The notes beneath the pieces were generated by a model. The model worked only from the letters and a program-made list of their open reading frames with translations. It ran no database searches and was not told the DNA's origin. Source: Desulfocapsa sulfexigens DSM 10523 (GTDB lineage Bacteria > Desulfobacterota > Desulfobulbia > Desulfobulbales > Desulfocapsaceae). Taken from it: DNA of 32,000 nt. Positions 1,369 to 16,354 of the stretch are shown here, piece by piece; positions within the stretch are counted from its first letter, which is position 1, and every line of letters begins with the position of its first letter. A program made the position numbers and the translations under genes. The stretch spans positions 1,710,001 through 1,742,000 of the forward strand of contig NC_020304.1 of NCBI RefSeq assembly GCF_000341395.1, read 5' to 3'.

Positions 1369-1609
1369 CACAGTTCTCAATTTGAGTCACCGTAACTGGC
1401 CAAATTTAAAGGTTTTAGGCGTGGCGTGCGCCCTCTTTTCTTCTGGTGCACTGTCTGGCGAAAAGGATCTTATGCAAGACTCCTCCCCCCTCTCTTTATT
1501 TTGTTTTTGCATTTATCGGAATCAATTCATACAATGAATAAGTTGTGAAGGTTTTAGAATATTTTCTTAATATCTAGTATCCAGGCAGAATAAACAGGAG
1601 GTAGCGCCA

Positions 1610-2674
1610 ATGGATGTAGCCCAGTTAATCCCAACGCCCGATGTGCTCCAGGTTCCATGGGGCTGGTTTCAGGTTCTTCTCACCGTTACCTTTTTTCTTC
1701 ATCTGGTGGTGATGAATATCCTTCTTGGTTGTTCAGTTATTGTTTTTTTCAGACATGCCACAGGGAAGTCGACGGATATCAATAAGCGTATTTCCGGAAA
1801 ACTTCCCCTCACTGTCGCCTTTGCCGTGAACTTTGGTGTTGCACCGCTTCTCTTTGTTCAGGTCCTTTATGGCCATTTTATTTATGCAAGCTCAGTTCTG
1901 ATGGCCATTTACTGGTTGTCCATTTTCGTATTGTTGATATTGGCCTATTATGGCACATATATCTATAGCCTGAACTTTGATCGCTTGACTGGCTTCCGCA
2001 CTGTTCTCACCGGATTTATAGCAGGAATTCTTTTGGTAGTATCCTTTATCTTTACTTCCAATATGTCCCTTATGACAAATGTTGAGGCATGGCCTGCCTA
2101 CTTCAGTAATGCCCAAGGAACTCTCTTGATATTTTCTGACCCAAGTCTGGTGCCTCGTTTCCTGCACTCTGTGTTGGGCGCAGTCGCTGTGGGTGGTCTG
2201 TCAATTGGACTCTATTATGATTTAAAAAAACGTAAAGGAGAAGCTGGTGCAGAGGAGGGGGTAGCCGTCGGGATGAACTGGTTTGCGGGAGCAACGATGC
2301 TTAATGTCGGCATCGGTTCCTGGTACTGGGGAACTCTTCCGGCATCTGTCCGATCACTGGGGGGAGATGGCGGCGCTTTTTTTCTTATTTTTATTATTCT
2401 GGGGATCATTGCCGCAATATTCTCATTGATATATGGGATGAGACATGAGGTCCGCCTGGCAGTGTATTATCTTATGGGGTCACTTTTCTGTATGACACTG
2501 GTACGTGAATTTGCGCGACGACTTACCCTGGCACCCTGGTTTAAGACATCTGATCTTGAAGTTGTTCCTCAGTATTCACCGCTTATTGTTTTCCTGCTTG
2601 TCTTTGCAGGAGGATTGGCCTGTGTCTGGTACATGATTCGACTGGTTCTTACCGATAAGGAGGCACGCTCATGA
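1610..2674 (+). CDS. polytopic membrane protein, CydA-like (cytochrome bd oxidase subunit I superfamily), short form without Q-loop
   Basis: AGGAGG at 1596-1601 precedes the ATG at 1610. The 354-aa product is hydrophobic throughout. FFLHLVVMNILLG resembles the CydA His19 region. VPRFLHSVLGAVAVGGLSIGLYY resembles the CydA His186 region VKFVHTVASGYVTGAMFILGISAWY. The C-terminal VREFARRLTLAPWF resembles EYGRQPW. The stop overlaps the next start (ATGA at 2671-2674). Confidence 0.6.
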   Translation: MDVAQLIPTPDVLQVPWGWFQVLLTVTFFLHLVVMNILLGCSVIVFFRHATGKSTDINKRISGKLPLTVAFAVNFGVAPLLFVQVLYGHFIYASSVLMAIYWLSIFVLLILAYYGTYIYSLNFDRLTGFRTVLTGFIAGILLVVSFIFTSNMSLMTNVEAWPAYFSNAQGTLLIFSDPSLVPRFLHSVLGAVAVGGLSIGLYYDLKKRKGEAGAEEGVAVGMNWFAGATMLNVGIGSWYWGTLPASVRSLGGDGGAFFLIFIILGIIAAIFSLIYGMRHEVRLAVYYLMGSLFCMTLVREFARRLTLAPWFKTSDLEVVPQYSPLIVFLLVFAGGLACVWYMIRLVLTDKEARS

Positions 2675-5208
2675 ATTATCCGGTATGGCTACTCGATGCC
2701 TTTGGTGGTGGTACGCTTATTGCTCTTATTGCTGTTGTCCACGTGTATGTGGCGCATTTTGCAGTGGGTGGCGGACTTTTTCTTGTTCTCACCGAGCTGA
2801 AGGGTTTGCGTGAAAATTCTCCTGCAATTCTTGAATACACTAAGAAACATTCCAGAGTTTTTCTGTTGGTTTCCATGGTATTTGGTGGGCTTACAGGCGT
2901 TGCAATCTGGTTTACCATTGCACTTCTTAGTCCCGCTGCAACCTCTTCGCTTATTCATATTTTTGTCTTTGGCTGGGCCACCGAATGGGTATTTTTTTTC
3001 GGTGAAATTGTTTCCCTGCTGCTCTATTATTATTATTTCAACAAGATCAGTTCCAGAAATCATCTGATTCTTGGATGGATTTATTTTGGCTGTGCCTGGA
3101 TGTCCCTTTTTGTCATTAACGGTGTAATTGATTTTATGCTCACTCCAGGTGAGTGGCTGAATAATGGGAATTTCTGGTCGGGATTTTTCAACCCAACCTT
3201 CTGGCCGGCACTCTTTTTCAGAACCTTTCTGGCACTGATGATTGCCGGACTGTTTGGTTTTATTACCAGTGTGAATCTGAAAGATCCGGAAATGCGGCAT
3301 AAAATGGTGCGCTACTGCGGTCTCTGGCTTATGGCTCCCCTTGTTCTGCTCCTGGCGTCTGCCATGTGGTATAAAGCGGCCCTGCCACCTGCTCAGCAGG
3401 AGATGATTTTCGTCAAGTCACCAGAGATGAAACCCTTTCTCTCCGGGTTTGTCTTTCTTTCACCAATACTCTTTGCGGGCGGCCTGATTCTTGCTGCTTT
3501 TCGTCCTCAGGCGGTGCGTCGTCCAGTAGCCTGGGTTCTGCTCCTTCTGGGACTTCTCTATATGGGAAGCTTTGAGTTTATACGTGAAGGTGGCCGCAGG
3601 CCCTTTATCATTCACAACTATATGTACTCGACCGCTATTCTGAAGGCTGATATGCCGGAAGTTCAGAAAAAGGGTGTTTTGCAAAGTGCTCGTTGGGTAG
3701 AAAACAAAATTATTACTCCCGAGAACAGGATGGCCGCCGGTGCGGAACTGAACAAGATTCTTTGTCTCCCCTGCCATTCAACGGGCGGGCCTCTTAATGA
3801 TATCCTTCCCCTTGCCAGACGTTTTACGCCCCAGGGTATGGAAGCTTTTATTTTAAGCATGGGAACTGCAAATCCTTATATGCCACCTTTTGCAGGCAAC
3901 AGTGAGGAAGCTGCGGTTCTTGCCGAATATCTTACCGCTGGTTTGATCCCCGGTTTTCTTCCCACGGCTCCGAAAATCACTCCAGTGGCTGTGACTCCGT
4001 CACCATTTGATCCTGAAACCTCCGAATATGTATTGCTTGGGGGTGCCACACTGGGCAATATCCTCTATTCTGAGCCTGAAGAATCCGGGATTGATCTCTC
4101 CTATGGTGCTCCTGTCCTTCGCGCGCAACTGTTTTTCCGTGATGCAAGCCCCAGTCTGATTATGGAAAATACCACCGTTCGCTATACGATAGAGACCGGA
4201 AAAGGTGTGGTTGAAGGAGCAATGGAGGCGCAGGATGGATATTTTGAAACAGCACTTGCTGAAATCCCAACTCCATTGAAACCCTACCAGCCATTTTTTA
4301 TTGCTCAGCTTGAGGCAACGGTGGACGGAAAGGTTGTTGCGACGACTCAGGCTAAAATTGGTGTTGCAACGGAGTTTGGCTGTCGAAATTGTCACGGTGG
4401 AAAATGGCGTCAGGGTGGGCGAAGCGGTATGTCCAGAGAGACTGCTTCCGGTATTCTTGCATCCCATGACAGAAAGAGTAATACCAACTTAAGTGCAGAT
4501 TTCGCCGATGGGAAAACAGTGGTCTGTTCGTCATGTCACGGTGATTTCAGTCGTGGAACAGAGAGTAAACCTGGACTGTTAAGCCTCTCCGCATCCATAC
4601 ACGGCTATCATGCTGGATTTCTGGTTGAGGAGGGGGGGAATAGTTGTGTGCTCTGTCACTCATCAAGTGATACCGGCGCCAGTCACTCCTATGATGGTAT
4701 TCACAAACAGCTGGACCTTTCCTGCAGCAATTGTCATGGTATTCTGGCTGATCATGCCGCAAGTCTCCTGAAACAGGAAGGTGATACCGGTCAGGCGAAG
4801 AGCCTTCTCTCGCTTCTTGAGAGCAAAGGAGAGACTGTGATTGCCGAGGTGAATCCTCGCAGTCCATGGATAATGGAACCAGATTGTCTAACCTGTCATG
4901 TTGATTTTCATCCTCCTGAAACCGATACTGCCTTTAATACCTGGACTGAAGATGGAACAGGTTTGTTTCACAACCGTATGGGCGAGGCTGCTGTGGTTTT
5001 ATGCAGTTCCTGCCACGGTCAACCACATTCTCTTTATCCGTCTGTAAATGCCTATGGGAAGGTGATTGGTACACTGCAGCCGATGCAGTATCAAAACAGC
5101 CCCTATCCCATTGCGGCAGATAAGGGATGTGCCGTATGCCATACAATGGAGATGGAAGATGAGATGCACCACCCCGGCTCAAATGCAATGTTTAGAAATC
5201 GGGAATAG
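2671..5208 (+). CDS. CydA-like membrane domain fused to a monohaem class-I-type cytochrome c domain and a C-terminal heptahaem module (8 CxxCH in total)
   Basis: AAGGAGG at 2657-2663. The N-terminal ~320 aa are hydrophobic and carry AVVHVYVAHFAVGGG, WATEWVFFFGEIV (compare CydA LAIEGLMAFFLEST) and FIREGGRRPFII (compare AEYGRQPWAI). CLPCH lies at aa 365-369 (nt 3763-3777) with NPYMPPF downstream. Seven further CxxCH motifs start at aa 571, 619, 659, 685, 739, 778 and 820 (nt 4381-5142). Confidence 0.7.
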   Translation: MNYPVWLLDAFGGGTLIALIAVVHVYVAHFAVGGGLFLVLTELKGLRENSPAILEYTKKHSRVFLLVSMVFGGLTGVAIWFTIALLSPAATSSLIHIFVFGWATEWVFFFGEIVSLLLYYYYFNKISSRNHLILGWIYFGCAWMSLFVINGVIDFMLTPGEWLNNGNFWSGFFNPTFWPALFFRTFLALMIAGLFGFITSVNLKDPEMRHKMVRYCGLWLMAPLVLLLASAMWYKAALPPAQQEMIFVKSPEMKPFLSGFVFLSPILFAGGLILAAFRPQAVRRPVAWVLLLLGLLYMGSFEFIREGGRRPFIIHNYMYSTAILKADMPEVQKKGVLQSARWVENKIITPENRMAAGAELNKILCLPCHSTGGPLNDILPLARRFTPQGMEAFILSMGTANPYMPPFAGNSEEAAVLAEYLTAGLIPGFLPTAPKITPVAVTPSPFDPETSEYVLLGGATLGNILYSEPEESGIDLSYGAPVLRAQLFFRDASPSLIMENTTVRYTIETGKGVVEGAMEAQDGYFETALAEIPTPLKPYQPFFIAQLEATVDGKVVATTQAKIGVATEFGCRNCHGGKWRQGGRSGMSRETASGILASHDRKSNTNLSADFADGKTVVCSSCHGDFSRGTESKPGLLSLSASIHGYHAGFLVEEGGNSCVLCHSSSDTGASHSYDGIHKQLDLSCSNCHGILADHAASLLKQEGDTGQAKSLLSLLESKGETVIAEVNPRSPWIMEPDCLTCHVDFHPPETDTAFNTWTEDGTGLFHNRMGEAAVVLCSSCHGQPHSLYPSVNAYGKVIGTLQPMQYQNSPYPIAADKGCAVCHTMEMEDEMHHPGSNAMFRNRE

Positions 5209-5278
5209 CCCAAAACTTTTCATCTGAGCTAATAGGCTCCTGGAGAGTGTTCTCCTGGAGCCTATTGGTGTTTTGGGG
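5209..5278 (+). terminator. rho-independent terminator after the cytochrome gene
   Basis: A 16-bp stem (5231-5246 / 5251-5266, one T:T mismatch) with a GTGT loop is followed by GGTGTTTTG. The outer arms CCCAAAAC (5209-5216) and GTTTTGGG (5270-5277) are also complementary. Confidence 0.6.
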
Positions 5279-5313: not shown

Positions 5314-5697
5314 ATGGATAATAGTGATGATAAAGAAATTCTGCAGGCTTTTGTCGATCAGCTGGAAGTCTGGGGCTGTCAGGTATTGCGAGCTATAAAT
5401 CGCAGCAATCCATATCGTGGTGGATTTTCAATTCTCTTCCGTTGTGATGCTGCCACAGCCCGGGCAATTGCAGATCTTGGAATTGCCCAAATTCTCCTTG
5501 ATGTCAGAGCTGACACCTACCTGCTGCGTCTTCCTGAAGTTAATATTGATGCCACCCCGGAACCCCACCCCGCAATTCTTTCCTGGAATGAGGTCACAAA
5601 ACAGAAAAAACTAATGGAATTGCTGGCTCTTTGGAAGAATAGTGGAGATATCCTGGAGAAGCGCAGGCGCAAGTTAGGGATGTTTTACAAAGAATAA
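5314..5697 (+). CDS. hypothetical protein (127 aa), no family recognised
   Basis: Isolated ORF between a strong terminator and a 400-nt AT-rich gap. It has no competing long ORF and a lysine/arginine-rich C-terminus. There is only a weak purine-rich stretch before the ATG. Confidence 0.45.
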   Translation: MDNSDDKEILQAFVDQLEVWGCQVLRAINRSNPYRGGFSILFRCDAATARAIADLGIAQILLDVRADTYLLRLPEVNIDATPEPHPAILSWNEVTKQKKLMELLALWKNSGDILEKRRRKLGMFYKE

Positions 5698-6101: not shown

Positions 6102-6947
6102 ATGATATCTCTTCAGTCAGTGAACCTGGGTTACTCGAATATTCCTATTCTCAAAAATCTCACTCTCCATGTGGGGAAAGGGGAATTTCTGGGGGTGATA
6201 GGACTATCTGGTGCTGGTAAATCCACACTCCTTATGTCAATTATCGGAAATATTCGGGTTCTTCAGGGTAACTATCAGGTCTTTGGCTATGACCTTTCTT
6301 CAATAAGCAAACGGGAACTACGGCTGTTGCGTTCTCAGATAGGCTTTATCTTCCAGGGGTATAACCTTGTTAATCGACTTTCAGTTCTCCATAATGTGAT
6401 GTGCGGTATGCTGAAGGATCTCCCCATGGGGCGTTCGCTGATCAAGCTTTATAGTGGTGAAGAGTTGGAAAAGGCCCATGAATATATGCAGATCGTCGGC
6501 ATTGAACAGTTGGCTATGAAACGCTGTGATGAGCTTTCAGGCGGGCAACGGCAGCGGGTAGCTATTGCCAGAGCACTTGCACAGGAGCCGAAAGTCCTGC
6601 TGGCTGATGAGCCAGTTGCTGCTCTTGATCCCAAAAGTGCGGTCCAGGTGATGGATGTTCTACGCAAGGTAAATGAGACTTATGGGGTAACGATCATCAG
6701 TAATCTCCATCATCTGGATTTCGCACGCGAATATTGTGATCGCATTGTCGGGGTGGCTTCGGGATCTATTTCCTATGATGGTTCAACCCATGCACTGCAA
6801 GGAAGTACCCTGGAAGCAATCTATGACAACAACAGGCCCATGGGGGGTGAGTTCGACATAGCTTCAATTGTGGACAAAACGCATGGTGGAGTGCAAAGCA
6901 GCCCATGGGAGGAAGAGCGTTTCGCTAAAGTACCAGTAGCCGCATAA
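6102..6947 (+). CDS. phnC: phosphonate ABC transporter ATP-binding protein PhnC
   Basis: Walker A GLSGAGKST, signature LSGGQRQRVAIARAL and Walker B LLADEP. It is the first gene of a phn cluster, with AAGGAAAA before the ATG. Confidence 0.9.
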   Translation: MISLQSVNLGYSNIPILKNLTLHVGKGEFLGVIGLSGAGKSTLLMSIIGNIRVLQGNYQVFGYDLSSISKRELRLLRSQIGFIFQGYNLVNRLSVLHNVMCGMLKDLPMGRSLIKLYSGEELEKAHEYMQIVGIEQLAMKRCDELSGGQRQRVAIARALAQEPKVLLADEPVAALDPKSAVQVMDVLRKVNETYGVTIISNLHHLDFAREYCDRIVGVASGSISYDGSTHALQGSTLEAIYDNNRPMGGEFDIASIVDKTHGGVQSSPWEEERFAKVPVAA

Positions 6948-6984
6948 CGCGGAAAGAATAACAATACAAAGAGGAAACAGGAAA

Positions 6985-7860
6985 ATGAAAAGATTAATAA
7001 TGACTGTGATGGTGCTCTTTACCCTTGCAACGCTGACGACTGCATCTGCCGCGGTAAAAGAGGGATGGCCGGAAACCCTTACCTATGGGGTCATACCGGT
7101 TGCCTCGTCCCGTAATATGTCAGACAGCTTCGGGGGCCTGGTTCAGCATCTGGAAAAAGAGCTGGGCATTAAAGTCAAACTGCAGGTGGCAGGAGACTAT
7201 GCCGGAGTTATAACCGGAATGCAGCATGGTCATATCGACCTTGCCTACCTTGGTCCCAAGTCCTACTGCGAAGCCGCCATACGTGCGGGTGCCGAAGCCT
7301 TGGTGGTTGAAGTAGGGCAGAGCGGTGTGGCCGGTTATCACGGGTATATTATTACCAAGGCAGGTTCTGGACTGAACAGCCTTGATGACCTGAAAGGAAA
7401 AAAGTGGGCCTTCACCGATCCTCACTCGACCTCCGGCACCCTGGTGCCCACTGTTTACTTCAATAACATTAACATCAGTCCAGAGAAGTACTTTGGCAAA
7501 GTCATTTACTCAGGAAGTCACGAGGCCTCCATTCTGTCTGTTAAAGCTGGCAAGGTTGATGGTGCCTCCACAAATGACCTCGATTTTGATCGTGGCCTGG
7601 GTACCCACTGGAACAAGGATGACTTTAACATTATCTGGACATCCGACCTCATCCCCGGTTCCCCCATGGCGGCACGCGCTGACCTGCCGGCTTCTTTGAA
7701 GCAGGCCATTCAGGAGGCCTTTATCTCCTATCAGGATAAAGACGGCCTGGAGAAATTGAAGATCTCAGGTTTCCAGAAAGCTGACGACAAGCTCTACGAT
7801 GGAATCAGGGAACTGATAGCTCTGAAAAAGGCATTGAAGGAACGGGTTGCAAATAAGTAA
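6985..7860 (+). CDS. phnD: phosphonate ABC transporter periplasmic substrate-binding protein PhnD
   Basis: Signal peptide MKRLIMTVMVLFTLATLTTASA. PhnD-type segments LTYGVIPVASS, GHIDLAYLGPKSY and FTDPHSTSG. It lies between phnC and phnE. Confidence 0.9.
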   Translation: MKRLIMTVMVLFTLATLTTASAAVKEGWPETLTYGVIPVASSRNMSDSFGGLVQHLEKELGIKVKLQVAGDYAGVITGMQHGHIDLAYLGPKSYCEAAIRAGAEALVVEVGQSGVAGYHGYIITKAGSGLNSLDDLKGKKWAFTDPHSTSGTLVPTVYFNNINISPEKYFGKVIYSGSHEASILSVKAGKVDGASTNDLDFDRGLGTHWNKDDFNIIWTSDLIPGSPMAARADLPASLKQAIQEAFISYQDKDGLEKLKISGFQKADDKLYDGIRELIALKKALKERVANK

Positions 7861-7940
7861 CAGACCTTCTCCTCTGCCATGCTCTGTGGATTTACCCTCC
7901 GGAGTATGGCAGAGTTACTATCCTCTGACACCTGAGCATT

Positions 7941-8813
7941 ATGACATCACTACAAATCACACCGGAGTATTTACAGAAAAAATCATCTCCGTTCCAGTGG
8001 CAAAATCTTCTCATCCTAGTGCTGATAAGTGCTGTATATTCAACAAGCTGGTTGAACACCGAGATGAGTGTCGGTTCACTGATTGACGGTTGGAGTCACA
8101 TGCAGTCCTACATTGTCGGCAATCCTGATATAGAGGGATCCAGTTTTTTTCCACCCTCCTTTATCGTCTATGATATCAGGCTTTACCTCAAGGCCATGCT
8201 TGAGACCATAGAAATGGCAGTGGTAGCCCTCTTTATTTCCATTGCCGTCGGCTTTCCTCTGTCGCTTCTGGCCTCACGAAATATTTTGAAAATTCTTATC
8301 CCGGGAAGAGGTATCCTGGCCAGGGGGTTGCGGCGGATTCTTTACACCATCGCCATGTTGGTGGCCAATGTCTTCCGTTCTATTAACGAAATCGTCTGGG
8401 CCCTGCTCTTTGTGTCGGCCGTGGGACTGGGACCGATGGCTGGTATTCTGGCCCTTGGTGTCCATACCGCAGGCGTGCTCTGTAAACTCCTTGCCGAGGG
8501 AAATGAGGCCATTGATCCCGGGCCGGTTGAGGCACTGACTGCTACGGGAGCGAGTTTCCCGAAAATTATTGTCTATGCCGTACTACCGCAGACCATGCCT
8601 CATTTTATTTCCATGGTCCTCTATCGTTTTGAATCGGATGTGCGCAGTGCTTCCATTCTCGGGTTTGTTGGAGCCGGGGGCATAGGATTCTATCTCTTTG
8701 ATAAAGTACGTGCCTTTGAGAATGCGGATGTGACAACCATTATTATCATTATTGTGCTCACAGTGTGGTTGATCGATAAGCTCAGTGCCGGAATCAGGGC
8801 AAAATTTATTTGA
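7941..8813 (+). CDS. phnE: phosphonate ABC transporter permease PhnE
   Basis: 290-aa multi-pass membrane protein with an ABC-permease EAA-type loop EALTATGASFPKIIVYAVLPQ. Its operon position follows phnD. Confidence 0.85.
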   Translation: MTSLQITPEYLQKKSSPFQWQNLLILVLISAVYSTSWLNTEMSVGSLIDGWSHMQSYIVGNPDIEGSSFFPPSFIVYDIRLYLKAMLETIEMAVVALFISIAVGFPLSLLASRNILKILIPGRGILARGLRRILYTIAMLVANVFRSINEIVWALLFVSAVGLGPMAGILALGVHTAGVLCKLLAEGNEAIDPGPVEALTATGASFPKIIVYAVLPQTMPHFISMVLYRFESDVRSASILGFVGAGGIGFYLFDKVRAFENADVTTIIIIIVLTVWLIDKLSAGIRAKFI

Positions 8814-8825
8814 GGAGTCTGGAAA

Positions 8826-9239
8826 ATGGAGCGAGAGTCACTTCCCTTTTTGCTGCAGCAGGTTGGTTGCGATGAACTTTTTTCCCTGGTTCGGCTAATT
8901 GAAACCTGCAGCGATGTACAGGTCATTCAGCAGCCAAGCGCACAGACCATGATGCTGCCCATTGAGGATCCTGTCAGTCAGGGTTTGTTCTATGGCGGAG
9001 AACTTCTGGTCAGTAGCGCCATTGTCCGCGTCAACGGGGCTGAGGGCTGGGGCATGGTTCTGGATGAACAGCTGGAGCTTGCACTCCAGATTGCCATCCT
9101 GGACGGGGCCTGGACGGCTGGTGTTGAAATCAAGGCTATCAATGGTCTGGCAGAAAAAGGAAAAAAAATACATGAGCAGGCTATTGAACAGCAGGGCAGA
9201 CAGGTCGCCGCATCCAGGGTTTCTTTTGATTTGATGTGA
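8826..9239 (+). CDS. phnG: C-P lyase core complex subunit PhnG
   Basis: 137 aa. The C-terminal QVAASRVSFDLM resembles E. coli PhnG EVNASRVDFFTM. It is the first gene of the GHIJ block. Confidence 0.8.
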   Translation: MERESLPFLLQQVGCDELFSLVRLIETCSDVQVIQQPSAQTMMLPIEDPVSQGLFYGGELLVSSAIVRVNGAEGWGMVLDEQLELALQIAILDGAWTAGVEIKAINGLAEKGKKIHEQAIEQQGRQVAASRVSFDLM

Positions 9240-9255
9240 ATGGAGTAATTCAAGA

Positions 9256-9798
9256 ATGATTACAGAACAAAATGTTGAGCTGCTCAACCGGATCAATTTT
9301 CGTAGCTGCCTGAATGCCATGGCCAGGCCAGGTACCGTTTTCCCGATAGAACCTTTTTTCCATTCCGCCATGATGGCTCTTGCCTCCGTACTTCTCTATC
9401 CGGAAGTACGGTTTTTTCAGCAGGCGGATGGCGACTGGACGATGATCAAAGCAATGACCGGAACCACGGAAGTGAAGGAAAGCGAGGCGGATTATCTCTT
9501 CCTCGATCAACCGGATCCGGACATCTTGACTGCATCTCAACACGGTGACCAGCAGAACCCCGAGCGCAGTGCCACCCTTATCTGCAGCTGCGACAGCTTT
9601 GCAAACGGTAATCCGGTACTTCTCAGAGGACCTGGCATTCAGGGAAGCAGGAGAACGACCCTGCCGGTGCCTCCTGTTTTTTTAAAGCGGCTGGCACAAA
9701 AGAACAAAGACTTTCCCCTGGGGATTGATCTGTTTTTTCTTTCGCTGGACAACACTGTCTGCGCTCTTCCCCGCACGACTTCCGTGGAGTTGTTATGA
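9256..9798 (+). CDS. phnH: C-P lyase core complex subunit PhnH
   Basis: 180 aa. The N-terminal FRSCLNAMARPG matches the PhnH FRxLLxAMSxPG region. The stop overlaps the phnI start. Confidence 0.8.
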   Translation: MITEQNVELLNRINFRSCLNAMARPGTVFPIEPFFHSAMMALASVLLYPEVRFFQQADGDWTMIKAMTGTTEVKESEADYLFLDQPDPDILTASQHGDQQNPERSATLICSCDSFANGNPVLLRGPGIQGSRRTTLPVPPVFLKRLAQKNKDFPLGIDLFFLSLDNTVCALPRTTSVELL

Positions 9799-10847
9799 GC
9801 TATGTAGCTATTAAAGGCGGCAGTGAAGCGATTCGTTCTTCTAAAACTTTTTTCCGTGACATGATTCACCATGCAGAGGGAATTGGCGATAAAGAACTGC
9901 AGAAAGGGCTTATCTTTTCCTGTGACCGGATAATGGGTGAAGGTGGTTTGTACAGCGAAAAACTTGCCGCAGAGGCCATCCGGCGAACAGGAGGAGATCT
10001 GCTTGAGGCGGCCTTTTACATGCGGGCTCACCGATCCACCTGCAGACGGGTGGGAGACGCCGAAACACTGAACTGTGGGAGCATGCGGCTCCTTCGCCGT
10101 ATCTCTTCTGCGTTTAAAGATATTGAGGGTGGTCAGATTCTGGGCCCCTCCTGTGATTATGTTATTCGCCTTTTTCACGGCAATCTCCAGGAAGAGGAGG
10201 ATAATTCCCTCAAGGTAGACAGCATGACGGGGCCACTCCCCAGTGCGGTTGACAGCATGCGTCTCCGTGATCAGGTGATTGTGCTGCCCAACCATGAAGA
10301 TTCACCCCATGACGTCTCCCGCTCATTCCCTTTACCGCCTTACACCAGAAGCAGTCTGATGCAGGTCATGTCCAGGGGGGAGACCGGAGCCATGCTTGCC
10401 TTCGCCTATACTTCAATGCGCGGTTACGGAGATGTACACCCCACCATCGGGGATTTACGTATCGGCTATATTGAGGTGAAATTCACCCACCCCTTCACTG
10501 GAAAAAAAGTGAAGGTCGGAGAGATCCGGGTGACGGCCTGTGAATCCATCGGCTCCTTCAACCGGGATCCCGGTGACGGCAAGCTTCGTCTGAGCACAGG
10601 GTTTGGATTTTGCCTCGGTTTTAACGAGACAAAGGCAATCGCCATGTCAATCCTTGATATGGCCATGCATCACAAGGGGTATTCGGTGGGAGGGGTGGAC
10701 ATTGCCTCCAATCCGGAAATCATTATTCACCATGTGGACGGTATTGAGTCCATGGGCTTTACCAATCACTTTAAACTCCCGCACTACGTAACTTTTCAGG
10801 CCGATCTCCATGTACTGGAGAGGGCAAAGGAGATGACGGATGAATAA
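9795..10847 (+). CDS. phnI: C-P lyase subunit PhnI (nucleosidase forming ribose-1-methylphosphonate-5-triphosphate together with PhnG/H/L)
   Basis: 350 aa. The N-terminal MSYVAIKGGSEAI resembles E. coli MYVAVKGGEKAI. It overlaps both neighbouring genes. Confidence 0.9.
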   Translation: MSYVAIKGGSEAIRSSKTFFRDMIHHAEGIGDKELQKGLIFSCDRIMGEGGLYSEKLAAEAIRRTGGDLLEAAFYMRAHRSTCRRVGDAETLNCGSMRLLRRISSAFKDIEGGQILGPSCDYVIRLFHGNLQEEEDNSLKVDSMTGPLPSAVDSMRLRDQVIVLPNHEDSPHDVSRSFPLPPYTRSSLMQVMSRGETGAMLAFAYTSMRGYGDVHPTIGDLRIGYIEVKFTHPFTGKKVKVGEIRVTACESIGSFNRDPGDGKLRLSTGFGFCLGFNETKAIAMSILDMAMHHKGYSVGGVDIASNPEIIIHHVDGIESMGFTNHFKLPHYVTFQADLHVLERAKEMTDE

Positions 10848-11676
10848 GCAGACCTTTGCCTTTATGGATGAGGACGCAAAAAAAGAAATCAGGCGATCAC
10901 TGCTCAAGGCCGTTGCCCTGCCTGGATATACAGTTCCCTTTGCGTCTCGTGAAATGCCGGTGGCCAGAGGATGGGGGACAGGGGGGCTCCAGATAACCCT
11001 TTCAATTATTCTCGAACAGGATGTCCTCAAGGTGATTGATCAGGGCTGTGACGGTTCTGTGAATGCGGTGAACATGAGGGGTTTTATCACTTCGGTGACC
11101 GGGGTGGAGTCAGTAACCGAGACTTCACGGTCTACAATCATCCAGACCCGGCACCGGATACCAGAACAGGAACTGACAGAGGATCACATCCTGGTATTCC
11201 AGGTCCCATATCCCGAGGTACTTACCACCGTGGAGCCGGACACTGCACAACAGAAGAGGATGCATGGGGATGGAGATTATTCAAAACTGTGGGTTCTTCT
11301 CTACGAGGACACGTCACAGTTTGGCGACAGCCGGATCAGCAACCGCTATCCTGTACAGGTGGACGGTCACTATGTCATGGATCCCTCGCCCATTCCCAAA
11401 TATGATATTCCACGAATGGATAACAGTCCGGCACTGCAACTGTTCGGGGCAGGCCGGGAAAAGAGAATCTATGCCATTCCGCCCTATACTGAGGTGAAAC
11501 CACTGAAGTTTGATGATCGGGAGTTCAAGGTTGAAAGCTTCGGTAATATCTGCTGTGAGCGCTGTGGGGCATCGGGAGTCTTTTTTGATGAAGTCCGGAT
11601 TGGGAGTGACAAGCACTTCTTCTGCAGCGACACTGAATTCTGTGACGGGAACAGGGGGGAAGAACATGTTTCTTGA
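10840..11676 (+). CDS. phnJ: radical-SAM C-P lyase PhnJ
   Basis: FAFMDEDAKKEIRRSLLKAVALPGYTVPFASREMPVARGWGTGGLQIT closely parallels E. coli PhnJ, including the GWGTGG glycyl-radical glycine region. The C-terminal cysteine set is C-x2-C-x19-C-x5-C (CERCGAS...FFCSDTEFC). Confidence 0.92.
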   Translation: MNKQTFAFMDEDAKKEIRRSLLKAVALPGYTVPFASREMPVARGWGTGGLQITLSIILEQDVLKVIDQGCDGSVNAVNMRGFITSVTGVESVTETSRSTIIQTRHRIPEQELTEDHILVFQVPYPEVLTTVEPDTAQQKRMHGDGDYSKLWVLLYEDTSQFGDSRISNRYPVQVDGHYVMDPSPIPKYDIPRMDNSPALQLFGAGREKRIYAIPPYTEVKPLKFDDREFKVESFGNICCERCGASGVFFDEVRIGSDKHFFCSDTEFCDGNRGEEHVS

Positions 11677-12502
11677 TGTCCGTTCCTTAAGTAAAATTTA
11701 CGGCATCTCCTGTGGGCGCTGCCTTGAACTTACCGGTGCAAAACATAATAGGGCCATCTGTCCTGTCTGCAAGTCAGTTGTGGCTATCAATGGTGTTGAC
11801 CTCACGGTCGAAAAGAACGAAATCCTTGGTATCGTCGGTGAGTCTGGAAGTGGGAAATCCACTCTCCTGCAACTCATCTACCAGGATCTCGCTGCCACCG
11901 GCGGGGCAGTCTATTTTAACGGTCTGATGGATGACCATGGTGTCCCCTGTAACATCCTCAAGGCTCCTCCTTCGATGGTGTCTCGCCTGAGAAACAAAGA
12001 GATGTCCATGATTTACCAAAATCCCCGACTCGGTCTCAATTTCCTCTTTTCAGCAGGCGGCAATATTGCGGAAAGAATTATCGGCGGAGGCGAGCGGCGC
12101 TATGAAAAGATTCGCAGTGCTGCCCTTGGCTACATTGATCGTATTGAAATGGAAAGCAGTCGTATAGATGATTACCCGGAACAATTCTCAGGTGGTCAGC
12201 AGCAGAGGATTCAGATCGCCAAGGCTCTTTCTTCCTCCCCCAGTCTGCTTCTCCTTGATGAACCTACTACCGGGCTTGACGTTTCGGTACAGGCCAGAAT
12301 TCTTGATTTGATCAAGGAATTGCAGCAGGAAATGGGGTTTTCCATGATCATCGTGTCCCATGATCTGGGGGTTATCAACCACCTTACAGATATCACGATA
12401 GTCATGAAGCATGGAAGCTTGGTTGAATATGGACTTACCGACCAGGTTCTTGAAGATCCCCAGCATCCATATACCCAGTTGCTGGTTTCCAGCATTTTAT
12501 AA
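11666..12502 (+). CDS. phnK: C-P lyase accessory ABC-type ATPase PhnK
   Basis: I prefer the ATG at 11666 (GGGGGGA upstream, 11-nt overlap with phnJ) to the ORF-track start at 11510. Motifs: GIVGESGSGKSTL, FSGGQQQRIQIAKAL, LLLDEPTTGLDVSVQA, and C-terminal LEDPQHPYTQLLVSSIL matching E. coli LDDPHHPYTQLLVSSVL. Confidence 0.9.
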   Translation: MFLDVRSLSKIYGISCGRCLELTGAKHNRAICPVCKSVVAINGVDLTVEKNEILGIVGESGSGKSTLLQLIYQDLAATGGAVYFNGLMDDHGVPCNILKAPPSMVSRLRNKEMSMIYQNPRLGLNFLFSAGGNIAERIIGGGERRYEKIRSAALGYIDRIEMESSRIDDYPEQFSGGQQQRIQIAKALSSSPSLLLLDEPTTGLDVSVQARILDLIKELQQEMGFSMIIVSHDLGVINHLTDITIVMKHGSLVEYGLTDQVLEDPQHPYTQLLVSSIL

Positions 12503-12566
12503 CTTTCACCCAGGAAAACAGACGATGTACTCCACAGCACAGTTTGAACGGAGACAGGAAAAAGAC

Positions 12567-13292
12567 ATGACAAAACTTGAGCTCCGGAATATCAGCAAGA
12601 CTTTTACCCTCCATAACCGTGATGCCATCAAGGTTTCAGGGTTTTCTGAAGTCACTTTTTCGGTAAAGAGAGGTGAGTTGCTGGCTCTGATCGGCCCCAG
12701 CGGCGTTGGGAAATCCTCCATCCTCAAGGCCATATACCGTACGTACCTGACTGACTCAGGATCCATTTCTTTCCATCGGCGGGATGGCTCAGTGGTGGAT
12801 CTGGCAAGCTGTTCTGAAAGCAGGATACTGGATCTTCGTAAACGGGAGATCGGCTTTGTCACCCAGTTTCTGAAAGTTTTGCCACGTGTTACCGCCATAC
12901 AGGCGGTGGCCGCCCCCCTTATCGAACTGGGTGAAATGGAAAAGACGTCTCTGTTTCAGGCTGCACGTCTCCTTGAATTGCTCGGCATCCGTGAAGAACT
13001 TTTCCACATCTCGCCACTTACCTTTTCAGGTGGAGAGCAGCAGCGGGTCAACATCGCTCGGGGCGTCATTGCACCCAAAGAGCTTCTCCTCCTGGATGAA
13101 CCGACAGCGTCGCTCGATGACCAGAGTTCCAGTCGGGTTCTTGATCTCCTGCTGGATTTGAAAAGAAACGGTATTGCAATGATCGGAATTTTTCACGATA
13201 AAGCCAAGATTGGAAAAGTGGCGGACACTACCTATGAGATCACCAGGACGGCTCTCACCATGCCTAAGGCAATGCGGCAGGAGGCAGCTTGA
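12567..13292 (+). CDS. phnL: C-P lyase accessory ABC-type ATPase PhnL
   Basis: I prefer the ATG at 12567 (MTKLELRNISKTF, parallel to E. coli MINVQNVSKTF). An alternative ATG at 12525 exists, and the ORF-track start at 12411 overlaps phnK. Motifs: GPSGVGKSS, FSGGEQQRVNIARG, LLLDEPTASLD, GIFHD. Confidence 0.85.
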   Translation: MTKLELRNISKTFTLHNRDAIKVSGFSEVTFSVKRGELLALIGPSGVGKSSILKAIYRTYLTDSGSISFHRRDGSVVDLASCSESRILDLRKREIGFVTQFLKVLPRVTAIQAVAAPLIELGEMEKTSLFQAARLLELLGIREELFHISPLTFSGGEQQRVNIARGVIAPKELLLLDEPTASLDDQSSSRVLDLLLDLKRNGIAMIGIFHDKAKIGKVADTTYEITRTALTMPKAMRQEAA

Positions 13293-14446
13293 TGAACTCA
13301 GTTCTTCGTTCGAGCCGTGTTCTCACCGACGGATACATTCAACCAGCCGACGTCGTTATCAGGCATGGTTTCATTGAGAAGGTTGCTCCCTTCAAATCAC
13401 AGAAAAATGCCTATGACCTTGGACAAAGGCTCATTGTCCCAGGGTTTGTGGATCTTCACTCAGATGCCGTTGAAAAAGAGATCGAACCACGGCCGGGTGC
13501 ACACTTCCCCATCGCTTCAGCCCTTGTGGAATTGGATAAAAAACTTACAATGGCTGGTATAACCACCATGTTTCATGCCGTCGGTTTTAACGATGCGGCC
13601 ATCACGGGATATAGGGCCACAAAGATTGCCGCTCATGTGATAGAGGAGATCAATACAGCCAATCGTCATCTGCTCGGAGTTGATAATTTTGTCCATGCCC
13701 GCTTTGAGGTGACTTCTTTTGAATCGGTAGGGGTGATCAAAGAACTGATACACAACGAATCCGTTCACCTCCTTTCTGTTATGGATCATACACCTGGACA
13801 GGGTCAGTTCAAATCCATTGAAAACTGGAAGAAATTTCACCTCCCGGTCTACAAGCTGAGCGACAGCGATGCCGATGAGATTATCCGCCATAAGATACGG
13901 GGCCGCTCCAGGGCTTTTGCCGTGGTTGAAGAGCTGCTGCGCTACGGGGCGGAGCATGATCTGGTGCTTCTCTCCCATGACGATGACAGTCGCCACAAGA
14001 TTGATCTGCTCAAGGAATTTGGGGTCAGCATTTCCGAGTTTCCACTTGATGTTGATATTGCTGTCTATGCGAAGAAGAAAGGGATTGCGACGGGGATGGG
14101 GGCACCTAATGTGGTGCGCGGAGAGAGCCAGAGCGGCAATGTTTCAGCGAGAAAACTGATCGTGGAAAATGCCTGTGATTTTCTCTGCTCCGATTATCAT
14201 CCAAGCTCCATGCTCCAGGCCCCCTACACAGCTCACAGGGAGATTGGCCTTTCCCTCGAACGCTGTTTTGACATGGTTACCAGCACGCCTGCCCGCCTTG
14301 CGGGATTGAACGACCGCGGAGAGATTCGGGCCGGAAAGATTGCCGACCTGGTCGTCATAGAAGATGCCAATATCCCTAAAGTCATTCTAACCCTGAAAGA
14401 GGGCAGTCCCGTCTACAACGGGACTGCCTGTCTCTGCGGAGAGTAA
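13289..14446 (+). CDS. phnM: PhnM, alpha-D-ribose 1-methylphosphonate 5-triphosphate diphosphatase (amidohydrolase fold)
   Basis: 385 aa. LIVPGFVDLHSDAVEKEIEPRPG is a typical PhnM metal-ligand region, and SHDD and CSDYHP segments are present. The start overlaps the phnL stop (ATGA). Confidence 0.88.
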   Translation: MMNSVLRSSRVLTDGYIQPADVVIRHGFIEKVAPFKSQKNAYDLGQRLIVPGFVDLHSDAVEKEIEPRPGAHFPIASALVELDKKLTMAGITTMFHAVGFNDAAITGYRATKIAAHVIEEINTANRHLLGVDNFVHARFEVTSFESVGVIKELIHNESVHLLSVMDHTPGQGQFKSIENWKKFHLPVYKLSDSDADEIIRHKIRGRSRAFAVVEELLRYGAEHDLVLLSHDDDSRHKIDLLKEFGVSISEFPLDVDIAVYAKKKGIATGMGAPNVVRGESQSGNVSARKLIVENACDFLCSDYHPSSMLQAPYTAHREIGLSLERCFDMVTSTPARLAGLNDRGEIRAGKIADLVVIEDANIPKVILTLKEGSPVYNGTACLCGE

Positions 14447-14448
14447 CC

Positions 14449-15093
14449 ATGGTTTATATCAAGTCTCATAACCCCGATCCGGAAATCACCCTTGGCTCTT
14501 TCCCGCTTATTTCAGAGAAGGCAAGGGTACGGTCTGCGGAACTGGGGCGTTATACTGAACTGCGTGATCATGTCGAATTTGTTGAATCCAGCCTGGGAGA
14601 CTACTCCTACGTTATGGAGCGAAGCTCCATTGTCTACAGCACGATTGGTAAGTTCGTCAATATTGCTTCGGACGTGCGCATTAACCCCGGCAATCACCCG
14701 ATGCACTGGGTGAGTCAGCACCACATCATGTACAGAAGGAAACAGTATGGAGTTGCCGGCAGTGACGACGAATCTTTTTTTGCTGAACGGAGACTGCGAA
14801 AGGTGGTCATCGGCCATGATGTGTGGATTGGCCACGGCGCAACCATCATGCCCGGAGTGAGCATCGGTAATGGGGCTATTATCGGCGCGGGCTCCGTGGT
14901 GACCCACGATGTAGCTCCTTACACGATTGTCGCCGGTGTCCCTGAAAAAGAGATACGGAGCCGCTTTCGCAGCAGCACCAGGGATGCCATTGAAAGAACC
15001 TGCTGGTGGGATTGGGACCATGAGACCATCAGAGAGCGGATTGATGATTTTCGTGATGTGGACCGCTTTCTTGCTCTGTATGGCTCCAGGTAG
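14449..15093 (+). CDS. left-handed beta-helix (hexapeptide-repeat) acyltransferase, phn-operon-associated family
   Basis: Hexapeptide repeats VVIGHDVWIGHGATIMPGVSIGNGAIIGAGSVVTHDV. The C-terminal CWWDWDHETIRERIDDF tail is as I remember it for the phosphonate-linked hexapeptide transferase family (TIGR03308, from memory). It starts 2 nt after the phnM stop. Confidence 0.8.
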   Translation: MVYIKSHNPDPEITLGSFPLISEKARVRSAELGRYTELRDHVEFVESSLGDYSYVMERSSIVYSTIGKFVNIASDVRINPGNHPMHWVSQHHIMYRRKQYGVAGSDDESFFAERRLRKVVIGHDVWIGHGATIMPGVSIGNGAIIGAGSVVTHDVAPYTIVAGVPEKEIRSRFRSSTRDAIERTCWWDWDHETIRERIDDFRDVDRFLALYGSR

Positions 15094-15113
15094 CATACAG
15101 GACGCCCTTCACA

Positions 15114-15656
15114 ATGAAGATTCTTCTTGTTACCGGACCGAGTGGAGCAGGCAAGGACAGTCTGCTCCGTCTGGCCGGCCAGTATTTCAGGAAAGACAGT
15201 CGCCTCTGTCTGGTAAAGCGCTACATAACCAGGCAGCCTGACAGCAATGAACAGAATTATTTTGTGGACCATGCGGCATTTACCCTTCTCTGCAAGAACA
15301 ATTTCTTTATCTCCCATTGGAATGCCCATGGAAACTTCTACGGTATACCACGAACGGGACTTCCAGATAAAAAAGAGAATACGCTCGCCATTATTTCCAT
15401 TTCCAGGCAGAATGTAGGTGATTTCGAACGCTGCTTTGAGCGGGTAACCACTCTTGGGATAAAAGTAGACCCCGATATTCTCCGCAGGCGTTTACGGGCC
15501 AGAGGGCGTGAAGATGACAAAAGCATTGAAAAACGGCTGCAAAGAACGGCATCTCCGATAAAGGCCAGAAGGATGCTCCATTTTGACAACTCCGCGGAAC
15601 TGGCATGCAGTGGAAAACAGTTCCTTGATCTGCTTGATTCTCTTGCTGAGGAGTGA
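15114..15656 (+). CDS. phnN: ribose 1,5-bisphosphate phosphokinase PhnN
   Basis: 180 aa. The N-terminal P-loop LVTGPSGAGKDSLL parallels E. coli PhnN LMGPSGSGKDSLL, with a guanylate-kinase-like length. Confidence 0.8.
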   Translation: MKILLVTGPSGAGKDSLLRLAGQYFRKDSRLCLVKRYITRQPDSNEQNYFVDHAAFTLLCKNNFFISHWNAHGNFYGIPRTGLPDKKENTLAIISISRQNVGDFERCFERVTTLGIKVDPDILRRRLRARGREDDKSIEKRLQRTASPIKARRMLHFDNSAELACSGKQFLDLLDSLAEE

Positions 15657-16354
15657 CGGACAGTATGCGATTTGCAATCTACTATGCTCCTTCCGCTCAA
15701 TCCCGGCTGTTTAAAATCGGACATCGCTGGCTGAGTCAAAATGGTCTGGCGGGAAAAGGGATCGGGCACAATTCACTTACCGGTATTTCTGCAGCCAGGC
15801 TTGCGGAAATCATTGACTCTCCAAGGCACTATGGGCTGCATGGAACATTAAAGGCTCCCTTCAGGCTTGCAAAGCATCGTGATGAGGAAGAGCTGCACTC
15901 CTGTTTGAACAGCTTTACCCGTCAGCGCAAGCCCTTTGTAACACCTCCCCTTTGCCTTCGTCTGCTCAATGACTTTTTCTGCCTTTGTCCGGAGAGGAGA
16001 GCGTCGGAGATAGATAATCTCGCAGCCGAGTGTGTTCAAGTTTTCGATGAATTCAGGGCTCCCCTCAACCAGATTGAACTGGATCGTCGCGGAACAGGTG
16101 CGCTTACTGAGGATGAAAAACACAATCTCTTCACCTGGGGGTATCCCTACGTGATGGAGCAGTTCCGTTTTCATATCACTCTCACTGGCAGGATAGATGA
16201 TGAACACGAAAGGGAGCTGCTTCAGACCTGTCTTGGGGATTTTTTTGCACCGGTCATCGGTAAAGCTCTGACAGTGGACGGGATAAGTCTCTTTGTCGAG
16301 CCATCACCCGGTGAACCATTTTTCTGCAGCAGGCACTACCCGTTCAGTCTTTAA
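15653..16354 (+). CDS. DUF1045-type putative phosphonate-metabolism protein with two H-x-T motifs (2H phosphoesterase-like)
   Basis: GTG at 15653 overlaps the phnN TGA, and an alternative ATG lies at 15665. MRFAIYYAP is followed by LHGTLK (His codon at 15839-15841) and FHITLTG (His codon at 16172-16174), which is the tandem H-h-T/S-h signature of 2H phosphoesterases. It is the last gene of the phn operon. Confidence 0.7.
   Translation: MTDSMRFAIYYAPSAQSRLFKIGHRWLSQNGLAGKGIGHNSLTGISAARLAEIIDSPRHYGLHGTLKAPFRLAKHRDEEELHSCLNSFTRQRKPFVTPPLCLRLLNDFFCLCPERRASEIDNLAAECVQVFDEFRAPLNQIELDRRGTGALTEDEKHNLFTWGYPYVMEQFRFHITLTGRIDDEHERELLQTCLGDFFAPVIGKALTVDGISLFVEPSPGEPFFCSRHYPFSL

Follow-up and report, generated by a model that had tools for sequence, protein, structure and literature searches.

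The cytochrome bd superfamily has been split into three branches, qOR, OR-C and OR-N (Murali, Gennis & Hemp 2021, bioRxiv 10.1101/2021.01.16.426971; ISME J 15:3534). In that survey, the OR-C1a subunits have no quinol site, have eight transmembrane (TM) helices and are extended at the C-terminus by a periplasmic region with up to eight CxxCH motifs. They adjoin a paralogue, OR-C1b, and the 'b' subunits are generally without E99 and E107 (10.1101/2021.01.16.426971). A total of 532 OR-C sequences were found among 24,706 GTDB genomes. Dozens of OR-C1a with eight haems are listed in Table S7, including those of Desulfobulbus propionicus, D. japonicus and D. mediterraneus, and membrane complexes with many haems are described as typical of the deltaproteobacteria (10.1101/2021.01.16.426971). 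Two adjacent genes of Desulfocapsa sulfexigens DSM 10523, UWK_01526 and UWK_01527, belong to the described OR-C1a/OR-C1b family, clade placement being by proxy, from signature residues and from homology to a protein on the survey's list. The organism is a marine, strictly anaerobic sulfur disproportionator. The genes lie in a stretch of 32,000 nucleotides (NC_020304.1, positions 1,710,001 to 1,742,000), here called the window, within which all coordinates are counted. Both carry the annotation 'hypothetical protein'. They are referred to as open reading frames (ORF) 1 and 2, with lengths in amino acids (aa):

1610-2674, forward strand: ORF1, UWK_01526, 354 aa, a diverged paralogue of CydA, OR-C1b type, occupying the subunit II position
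2671-5208, forward strand: ORF2, UWK_01527 (100% identity), 845 aa, an OR-C1a-type CydA-like domain plus c haems

On balance, the pair is judged to be an OR-C1-type heterodimer of the bd superfamily that probably works as a reductase of O2, or of another small oxidant, fed by c haems. A first-pass annotation, made from the sequence alone, had read the two genes as a bd-superfamily pair with eight periplasmic c haems that is not a canonical quinol oxidase. The Pfam, profile, fold and topology comparisons presented below agree with this.

Assignment to the OR-C1 family

The reference residues of OR-C1a are H24, E105, E112, S145, H131, Y119, Y121, F183, V77, W80 and L153 (10.1101/2021.01.16.426971). 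Ten of these 11 are identical in ORF2 at the same numbering, and position 153 is Ile, not Leu. A homologue of ORF2 is present in Desulfogranum (Desulfobulbus) mediterraneum at locus L030 (scaffold00007.7, which carries the listed OR-C1a G494DRAFT_01863). It is 49% identical to ORF2 over aa 1-844, contains eight CxxCH and has an ORF1 homologue upstream.

The first-pass annotation had half remembered a survey of the bd superfamily. That survey is real (Murali, Gennis & Hemp 2021), and the locus fits its OR-C1a/OR-C1b. The novelty of the locus had been overestimated, since the architecture, including the eight-haem form in Desulfobulbus, is already catalogued. The novelty is low because the family is already named. 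Relative to the survey, the additions made here are the invariant H31, H186, M295 and R299 of the unannotated OR-C1b family, which include the H19- and H186-equivalent His and an invariant Met; nine predicted TM helices in ORF1, not eight; the alignment of ORF2 E306 with E445; and the extra invariant H29 and H96 in ORF2. A 2026 structural paper mentions OR-C merely as a phylogenetic class. Nothing was found in the literature on the locus tags UWK_01525-28, Dde_0290/0291, Despr_2724, DGI_4051, THEYE_A0176 and Dbac_2631.

The membrane domain of ORF2

The evidence that ORF2 is related to CydA comes from its N-terminal part:

2671-3630, forward strand: ORF2 membrane domain, aa 1-320, OR-C1a-type and CydA-like, 8 TM helices, N-terminus out, C-terminus out

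Residues 17-199 match Pfam PF01654 (Cyt_bd_oxida_I) with 36.8 bits, the gathering score being 26.2. Single-sequence phmmer searches of both ORFs against the PDB sequences gave nothing relevant. A family profile of ORF2 (A2, 43 sequences) finds the Geobacillus thermodenitrificans CydA (5doq_A) with E 4.6e-8, pairing H24 with H21, E105 with E101, E112 with E108 and H131 with H128. Against an E. coli-anchored CydA profile, H24 falls on H19, E105 on E99, E112 on E107, H131 on H126 and S145 on S140. The E112-E107 pairing includes a one-residue deletion, as is typical for non-qOR1 families. The two glutamates had been equated with E99 and E107 by eye, and this stands with the first of them renumbered from 104 to 105. 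A short second HMMER segment sets the invariant FEFIREGGRRP opposite GRQPW and E306 opposite E. coli E445. The AlphaFold2 (AF2) model of ORF2, with a predicted local distance difference test score (pLDDT) of 82 and a predicted template modelling score (pTM) of 0.71, contains eight TM helices, and a Foldseek search of the PDB with it ranks CydA chains highest (5doq_A, E 1.4e-6).

Conservation was assessed in 72 homologues with identity down to 44%. In all of them E105, E112, H131, S145 and E306 are kept, and H24 is kept in 71, the sole exception being a gap. The residues H29, H96, Y119, R184, E302, R305 and R309 are also invariant.

The two haem b558 ligands of the canonical catalytic subunit, H186 and M393, have both been lost from ORF2. 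At the H186 position there is F183 (Phe in 70/72), adjoined by the invariant R184; the first-pass annotation had placed an Arg at the position itself. There is no M393 equivalent and no Q-loop, the loop between TM6 and TM7 being 19 aa. E. coli CydA, at 522 aa, exceeds the membrane part of each ORF by about 200 aa. This had been seen at first, as had the lack of an insertion the size of the Q-loop, the TM6-TM7 loops being 12-19 aa.

All 72 OR-C1a homologues have H29 and H96, two residues that canonical CydA does not share; E. coli has P24 opposite H29 and D90 opposite H96. The two His may serve as additional haem ligands, and the accessible part of Murali, Gennis & Hemp 2021 does not discuss them.

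ORF1, a diverged CydA paralogue

ORF1 contains no CxxCH motif. It has no match in Pfam or NCBIfam, PF01654 and PF02322 included, and its family profile (A1) finds nothing among the PDB sequences. Because these searches were blank, profile-profile and fold comparisons were needed to place it. In hhalign, A1 runs collinear with the membrane domain of ORF2 for 278 columns (E 1.4e-5; N-terminal part alone, E 6.8e-6), which puts H31 on ORF2 H24 and H186 on ORF2 F183. Against the E. coli-anchored CydA profile, H31 falls opposite H19 and H186 opposite H186, at a weak E of 0.11. The statistics against canonical CydA/CydB (hhalign E 0.018 and 0.11) are weak because the home-made profile is small and low in diversity, and they serve as supporting evidence only.

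The AF2 model of ORF1 (pLDDT 80, pTM 0.82) has nine TM helices. The predicted topology is N-terminus out and C-terminus in, with a positive-inside count of 3 versus 14, and the TM6-TM7 loop is 12 aa with no Q-loop. Among the top 15 Foldseek matches, 14 are CydA or CydB chains of bd oxidases, with query-normalised template modelling scores (TMq) up to 0.69. The sole non-bd match is the polysulfide reductase PsrC at rank 9. By profile-profile comparison and predicted structure, ORF1 is a diverged CydA paralogue.

The PF01654 comparison proposed with the first-pass annotation is therefore positive for ORF2 and negative for ORF1, for which the link to CydA is made through hhalign and Foldseek. The equivalences drawn by eye between ORF1 H31 and H19, ORF1 H186 and H186, ORF2 H24 and H19, and ORF2 GRRPF and GRQPW are all reproduced by profile alignment.

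That ORF1 is a CydB homologue was considered and rejected on sequence (hhalign E 0.13 over 32 columns), although the fold is common to both; genuine CydB genes at other loci score 219 bits against PF02322. The earlier statement that there is no CydB-like gene is right as to sequence family and wrong as to position, since ORF1 fills the place of subunit II.

There is no Glu in ORF1 at the E99 and E107 positions and no equivalent of E445. An exhaustive search with the ORF1 profile identified 1,827 representative clusters at 50% identity. None of the listed homologues has a precomputed Pfam domain, and they are 'hypothetical protein' wherever the sources name them. Across 137 representatives of the family (<=50% identity), H186 and Y113 are present in 137/137 and H31 in 136/137, while M295 and R299 are present in 134/134, TM8 bearing an invariant Met and two Arg. 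For H31, H186, M295 and R299 this is a pattern typical of axial ligands and propionate anchors. As these four residues and Y113 are near-invariant, ORF1 probably binds haem itself, carrying its own b-type haem(s), rather than being a cofactor-free analogue of CydB.

The opposite arrangement, in which ORF1 is a structural partner without cofactors and the redox chemistry is entirely in ORF2, is unlikely. It is favoured by the equal superposition of the ORF1 model on CydB and CydA chains (5doq_B, target-normalised score (TMt) 0.73), by the missing proton-channel glutamates and E445 equivalent, and by four loci that have an ORF2 homologue and no adjacent ORF1. It is opposed by the conservation of H31, H186, M295 and R299 just given, and by the failure of hhalign to find a relationship with CydB.

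The predicted periplasmic haem domains of ORF2

The eight CxxCH motifs of ORF2 are at aa 365, 571, 619, 659, 685, 739, 778 and 820, and use 16 of its 18 cysteines. With eight TM helices and a positive-inside count of 6 versus 13 Lys/Arg, both termini are placed outside. The C-terminal 540 aa are therefore predicted to be periplasmic, as covalent haem attachment requires. The topology prediction and the charge counts bear out the periplasmic orientation that had been supposed for the CxxCH domain. The C-terminal part is made up as follows:

3718-3945, forward strand: class-I-type monohaem cytochrome c, aa ~350-425, with C365-L-P-C-H369 and a likely distal M404 in NPYMPPF
4018-4368, forward strand: haem-free beta-sandwich, aa ~450-566, AF2 strands 453-566, block pLDDT ~87-95
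4369-5208, forward strand: heptahaem domain, aa 567-845, seven CxxCH, 571 to 820

The monohaem domain scores 21.5 bits against Pfam Cytochrome_CBB3, which is under the gathering score. Here the A2 profile matches c551 and c6 structures with E 1e-3 to 1e-2, and the AF2 model is helical across the domain. H369 and M404 are kept in 72/72 homologues. The segment that follows had been described as haem-free and about 150 aa long; it is indeed haem-free, and the confident AF2 model refines it to a beta-sandwich at aa ~453-566. Its Foldseek matches are weak only, to lipid-binding sandwiches of the immunoglobulin (Ig)/ML type (Der f 2, Unc119).

Within the heptahaem domain, aa 684-832 match PF22113, the MtrC/MtrF domain II/IV, with 39.4 bits (gathering score 30), and the domain also matches Cytochrom_c3_2 and c7 in Pfam. 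The beta-sandwich and the MtrC domain II/IV match after it recall the barrel-plus-pentahaem unit of MtrC. The four-domain decahaem architecture of MtrC/OmcA is absent, the NCBIfam decahaem models giving 17-29 bits versus cut-offs of 192-325.

All eight CxxCH and seven non-motif His (599, 644, 647, 678, 786, 833 and 834) are 100% conserved in the 72 homologues, and H695 is 90% conserved. Because each haem has a candidate sixth ligand, the periplasmic part of ORF2 looks like a wire, not a catalyst. A catalytic site there, in the manner of NrfA, HAO, MccA or OTR, is less likely given a candidate distal His or Met for every haem. This possibility is also weakened by the absence from ORF2 of CxxCK or any other variant motif.

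Distribution, pairing and genomic context

One genome per GTDB species was scanned, giving at least 582 loci, and gene order was studied in the best 80. The species genomes that carry OR-C1 loci, at least 582 in number, are from the Desulfobulbia, Desulfobacterales, Desulfovibrionales, Desulfuromonadales, Geobacteraceae and others. Every full-length ORF2 homologue in the best 80 loci has eight CxxCH. Six of the 80 are without upstream sequence, leaving 74 that are informative; in 70 of these an ORF1 homologue is immediately 5' on the same strand, and the 4 bp overlap between the two genes is found in about 49 of the 70. A survey of this kind had been called for with the first-pass annotation. 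ORF1 and ORF2 are an obligate pair. Four contigs from metagenome-assembled genomes of Desulfobacterales (L047, L055, L059 and L071) have an eight-haem ORF2 homologue and no ORF1 homologue within the retrieved locus, despite there being room for one. They may represent a subtype that is paralogous, has no partner or finds its partner in trans. Just 5' of the ORF2 homologue, L047 and L059 have rubrerythrin-family genes in place of ORF1.

No conserved third gene or regulator was found by neighbour clustering and a Pfam scan of 123 immediate neighbours, no family occurring more than nine times. The commonest families among these neighbours are PurF (9), Rrf2 (6), NnrU (4) and DsrE (4). In 6-9 loci a divergent Rrf2-family regulator lies upstream. 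Clustering puts a gene for an NnrU-family membrane protein (PF07298) directly 3' of the pair in some 12 loci of Desulfobulbaceae (e.g. L021:8728-9369), the count being 4 at E<=1e-5. NnrU is linked to nitric oxide (NO) and nitrite reductase expression in denitrifiers, and its presence nearby is a weak hint towards NO.

Canonical cydAB (PF01654 543 bits, PF02322 219 bits) is divergent upstream of the pair in 10 loci (L002, L004, L006-L012 and L046). These are mostly assigned to Desulfocapsa or Desulfobulbaceae, and an Rrf2-family regulator is often between. In an eleventh cydAB-linked locus, L079, cydAB is upstream on the same strand. The canonical cydAB of D. sulfexigens is UWK_01593/94 (PMC3739170), away from the OR-C1 pair, and the linkage is broken in this organism.

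In D. sulfexigens itself, genes for thiol peroxidase (Tpx) and an extracytoplasmic function (ECF) sigma factor adjoin the pair, with tpx upstream. A role in defence against O2 or reactive oxygen species had been proposed from these neighbours. This is not supported by conservation, as the context differs elsewhere, and a terminator-like hairpin and a promoter-like site part tpx from ORF1. Since the flanking genes differ between loci, the Tpx/ECF-sigma context is uninformative.

Some of these neighbours bear on the substrate. The pair might serve for detoxification in anaerobes and not for O2 reduction, as a cytochrome-c-dependent reductase of NO, H2O2 or peroxynitrite at the bd-type haem, which is doubtful. 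The Rrf2 regulators upstream, the NnrU genes downstream in 4-12 loci, the rubrerythrin genes beside ORF2 homologues in L047 and L059 and the thiol peroxidase gene upstream in D. sulfexigens all speak for it, as does a canonical cydAB already available for O2 in that organism. NO tolerance and peroxidase or catalase side activities have been reported for canonical bd oxidases. However, all such neighbours are confined to small minorities of loci, and the residues retained are those of the O2 site.

Gene layout and transcription signals

The coordinates, strand and lengths of the two ORFs, their ATGA overlap, both Shine-Dalgarno sequences and the count of eight CxxCH were confirmed as first described, and so was the strong terminator. 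The signals around the pair are:

1418-1432: terminator-like hairpin after tpx, consensus match only
1506-1535, forward strand: promoter-like site TTTGCA-18-TACAAT, 5' of ORF1, consensus match only
1596-1601, forward strand: Shine-Dalgarno sequence of ORF1, AGGAGG, 8 nt 5' of the ATG
2657-2663, forward strand: Shine-Dalgarno sequence of ORF2, AAGGAGG, 7 nt 5' of the ATG, within the ORF1 3' end
5228-5278, forward strand: intrinsic terminator, a long G+C-rich hairpin, then a T-run

The two genes are joined by the 4 bp start/stop overlap ATGA at 2671-2674. The terminator hairpin has a folding free energy (dG) of -41.3 kcal/mol (z = -6.96), and 0/200 shuffled sequences fold equally well. With a terminator-like hairpin and a promoter-like site lying between tpx and ORF1, the sequence suggests that ORF1 and ORF2 are transcribed on their own, apart from tpx. 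Promoter-like sites in the region are no more numerous than expected by chance. The ORF1 Shine-Dalgarno sequence is retained in four relatives from the Desulfocapsa clade. When the DNA upstream of the pair was aligned for five Desulfocapsa-clade loci, the Shine-Dalgarno sequence alone proved to be shared and no conserved operator was seen. An Rfam scan of the whole window gave no RNA family.

Proposed mechanism

By analogy with the canonical bd oxidases, the most likely function of the pair is that of a cytochrome-c-fed, haem-only reductase of O2 or another small oxidant. For the OR-C1 family, reduction of O2 with cytochrome c as the donor is the function that has been proposed. From the homology, fold, topology, residue conservation and gene pairing described above, the haem occupancy, electron direction, substrate and donor can be proposed as follows. 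ORF2 (OR-C1a) would be the catalytic subunit, in which the first four helices and helix 8 keep residues of the di-haem O2 site (H24 for H19, E306 for E445), and E105, E112, H131 and S145 would form the cytoplasmic proton pathway. Because these six residues are invariant, and the glutamates are gone from the non-catalytic paralogue, ORF2 appears to retain a di-haem, proton-fed site. Its quinol-oxidising module would have been lost, and the electrons would enter from the periplasm instead.

The probable donor is the periplasmic cytochrome c3 pool, from which electrons would pass through the seven bis-His c haems to the membrane-proximal His/Met c haem. The His/Met haem of class I cytochromes c is usually of high potential. 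By general cytochrome chemistry, bis-His haems preceding a His/Met haem beside the membrane would make a low-to-high potential gradient that points inward. The buried haem site would reduce O2, or possibly NO or H2O2, with cytoplasmic protons. The reaction would be electrogenic, as the electrons would come from outside and the protons from inside. ORF1 (OR-C1b) would replace CydB; it has lost the glutamates and kept H31, H186 and M295, and would probably hold its own b-type haem(s).

Several points weigh against this proposal. The equivalence of E306 and E445 comes from a short motif alignment that alone is not significant, and no E445 equivalent is given for OR-C1a in the accessible part of the survey (10.1101/2021.01.16.426971). 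Because of the extra invariant H29 and H96 in ORF2, the haem complement may differ from the canonical one. O2 as the substrate is an extrapolation from canonical bd oxidases, a canonical cydAB is already present in D. sulfexigens, and nothing in the genomic context points consistently to oxygen. The searchable literature yielded no data on the biochemistry, genetics or expression of any OR-C enzyme.

It is quite improbable that the pair is a quinone-linked conduit and not a terminal reductase. In such a conduit electrons would pass between the menaquinone pool and the b haem(s) of ORF1 (H31, H186/M295), and the c haems of ORF2 would provide the link to periplasmic partners. It would resemble Qrc, Tmc and Hmc of the sulfate reducers or CbcL/ImcH of Geobacter, and would act in sulfur-compound or extracellular electron transfer. 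ORF1 does keep the b558-type H186 that ORF2 lost, together with, on TM8, the invariant Met and two Arg. The main home of the family is among Desulfobacterota that respire sulfur and metals, Desulfuromonadales and Geobacteraceae among them; the haem domain is partly like MtrC domain II/IV; DsrE-family neighbours occur in four loci; and the association of many-haem membrane complexes with deltaproteobacteria noted by Murali et al. is in keeping with a conduit. However, there is no Q-loop or recognisable quinol site in either subunit, and it is difficult to see why E105, E112, H131 and S145 of ORF2 should be invariant unless a buried haem carries out chemistry that consumes protons. In addition, if the His/Met haem c on the membrane side is of high potential, outward electron flow would be uphill.

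As a tentative possibility, the pair could be a distinct respiratory module of about 10-12 haems, with the b haems of ORF1 (H186/M295, H31) and an altered ORF2 site that includes H29 and H96. This would couple the low-potential periplasmic cytochrome c pool of strict anaerobes to an oxidant other than O2 (NO, peroxide or sulfur species), or reversibly to menaquinone. If true, it would be a new energy-conserving complex of sulfur-cycling Desulfobacterota.

Comparison with other systems

With the canonical CydAB (E. coli bd-I 6rko/6rx4, Geobacillus 5doq) the pair shares the fold of both subunits, the H19-type ligand, the periplasmic N-terminus, the E99/E107/H126/S140 proton pathway and, in ORF2, the GRQPW-like motif after TM8. 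It differs in that the putative catalytic subunit, ORF2, is about 200 aa shorter and is without the Q-loop and the H186/M393 b558 site. The partner, ORF1, is a CydA paralogue, not a PF02322 CydB, and there is no CydX. The pair also has eight predicted covalently bound c haems, and its donor is presumed to be cytochrome c, not quinol.

CydAA' of Caldivirga maquilingensis (qOR4a/qOR4b) is likewise a heterodimer of two CydA paralogues that arose by gene duplication, and its second subunit has lost the proton-channel glutamates and kept the H19 equivalent. Unlike the pair described here, it is still a quinol oxidase, with the Q-site in subunit I, and contains no haem c; where ORF1 has His at the H186 position, its A' subunit has Ala. 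The OR-N, which are the 'bd-like' oxidases of Nitrospirota and Chloroflexi, are also without a quinol site, have had alternative donors proposed for them and are biochemically uncharacterised. They differ in having 10-14 TM helices, H186 and no fused multihaem domain, and they form a separate clade with other operon partners.

The cbb3- and caa3-type haem-copper oxidases share the proposed principle of a periplasmic feed through c haems with substrate protons from the cytoplasm. This is an analogy only, as their fold is unrelated, their active site contains copper and they pump protons. A bis-His multihaem wire with a beta-sandwich, as a periplasm-facing module of an anaerobe, is a likeness to MtrC/OmcA and to Qrc, Tmc and Hmc. 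With MtrC/OmcA it is at the domain level only (aa 684-832), and the wire of ORF2 is fused to an inner-membrane bd-type subunit, not part of an outer-membrane lipoprotein. In contrast to Qrc, Tmc and Hmc, the membrane subunit of ORF2 is unrelated to NrfD or cytochrome b.

Other features of the window

Directly after the terminator, at 5314-5697, is UWK_01528 (127 aa), an orphan that forms a single-member cluster among about 15 billion proteins; it has no significant match in Pfam or NCBIfam. From 6102 to 16354 this obligate anaerobe has a phosphonate ATP-binding cassette transporter (PhnC/D/E-like) and then genes for carbon-phosphorus (C-P) lyase (PhnI, PhnJ and neighbours). With methylphosphonate as its substrate, C-P lyase produces methane, and this may be of interest in sulfidic sediments. 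A Gly-rich repeat protein with a lipoprotein-like N-terminus is encoded at 20082-21029 and is the source of a spike in GC skew (+0.31) at 20-21 kb. By eye its repeats are MORN-like (YxGxWxxGxxxGxG), and no tandem DNA repeat was detected at 20082-21029.

Significance

The locus is no new kind of system, but is a clean and compact example of one, in a cultured organism with a complete genome. OR-C is one of the three branches of the bd superfamily and is found in sulfate-reducing, sulfur-disproportionating and metal-reducing bacteria, hundreds of species in all. Its OR-C1b subunits are a widespread family of putative membrane haem proteins that is unmatched by Pfam or NCBIfam models, which is a gap in annotation. 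If O2 is reduced through periplasmic cytochromes c, the pair would be a cytochrome c oxidase that is free of copper and independent of quinone. If true, this would give 'strict' anaerobes an additional O2-consuming route at oxic-anoxic interfaces.

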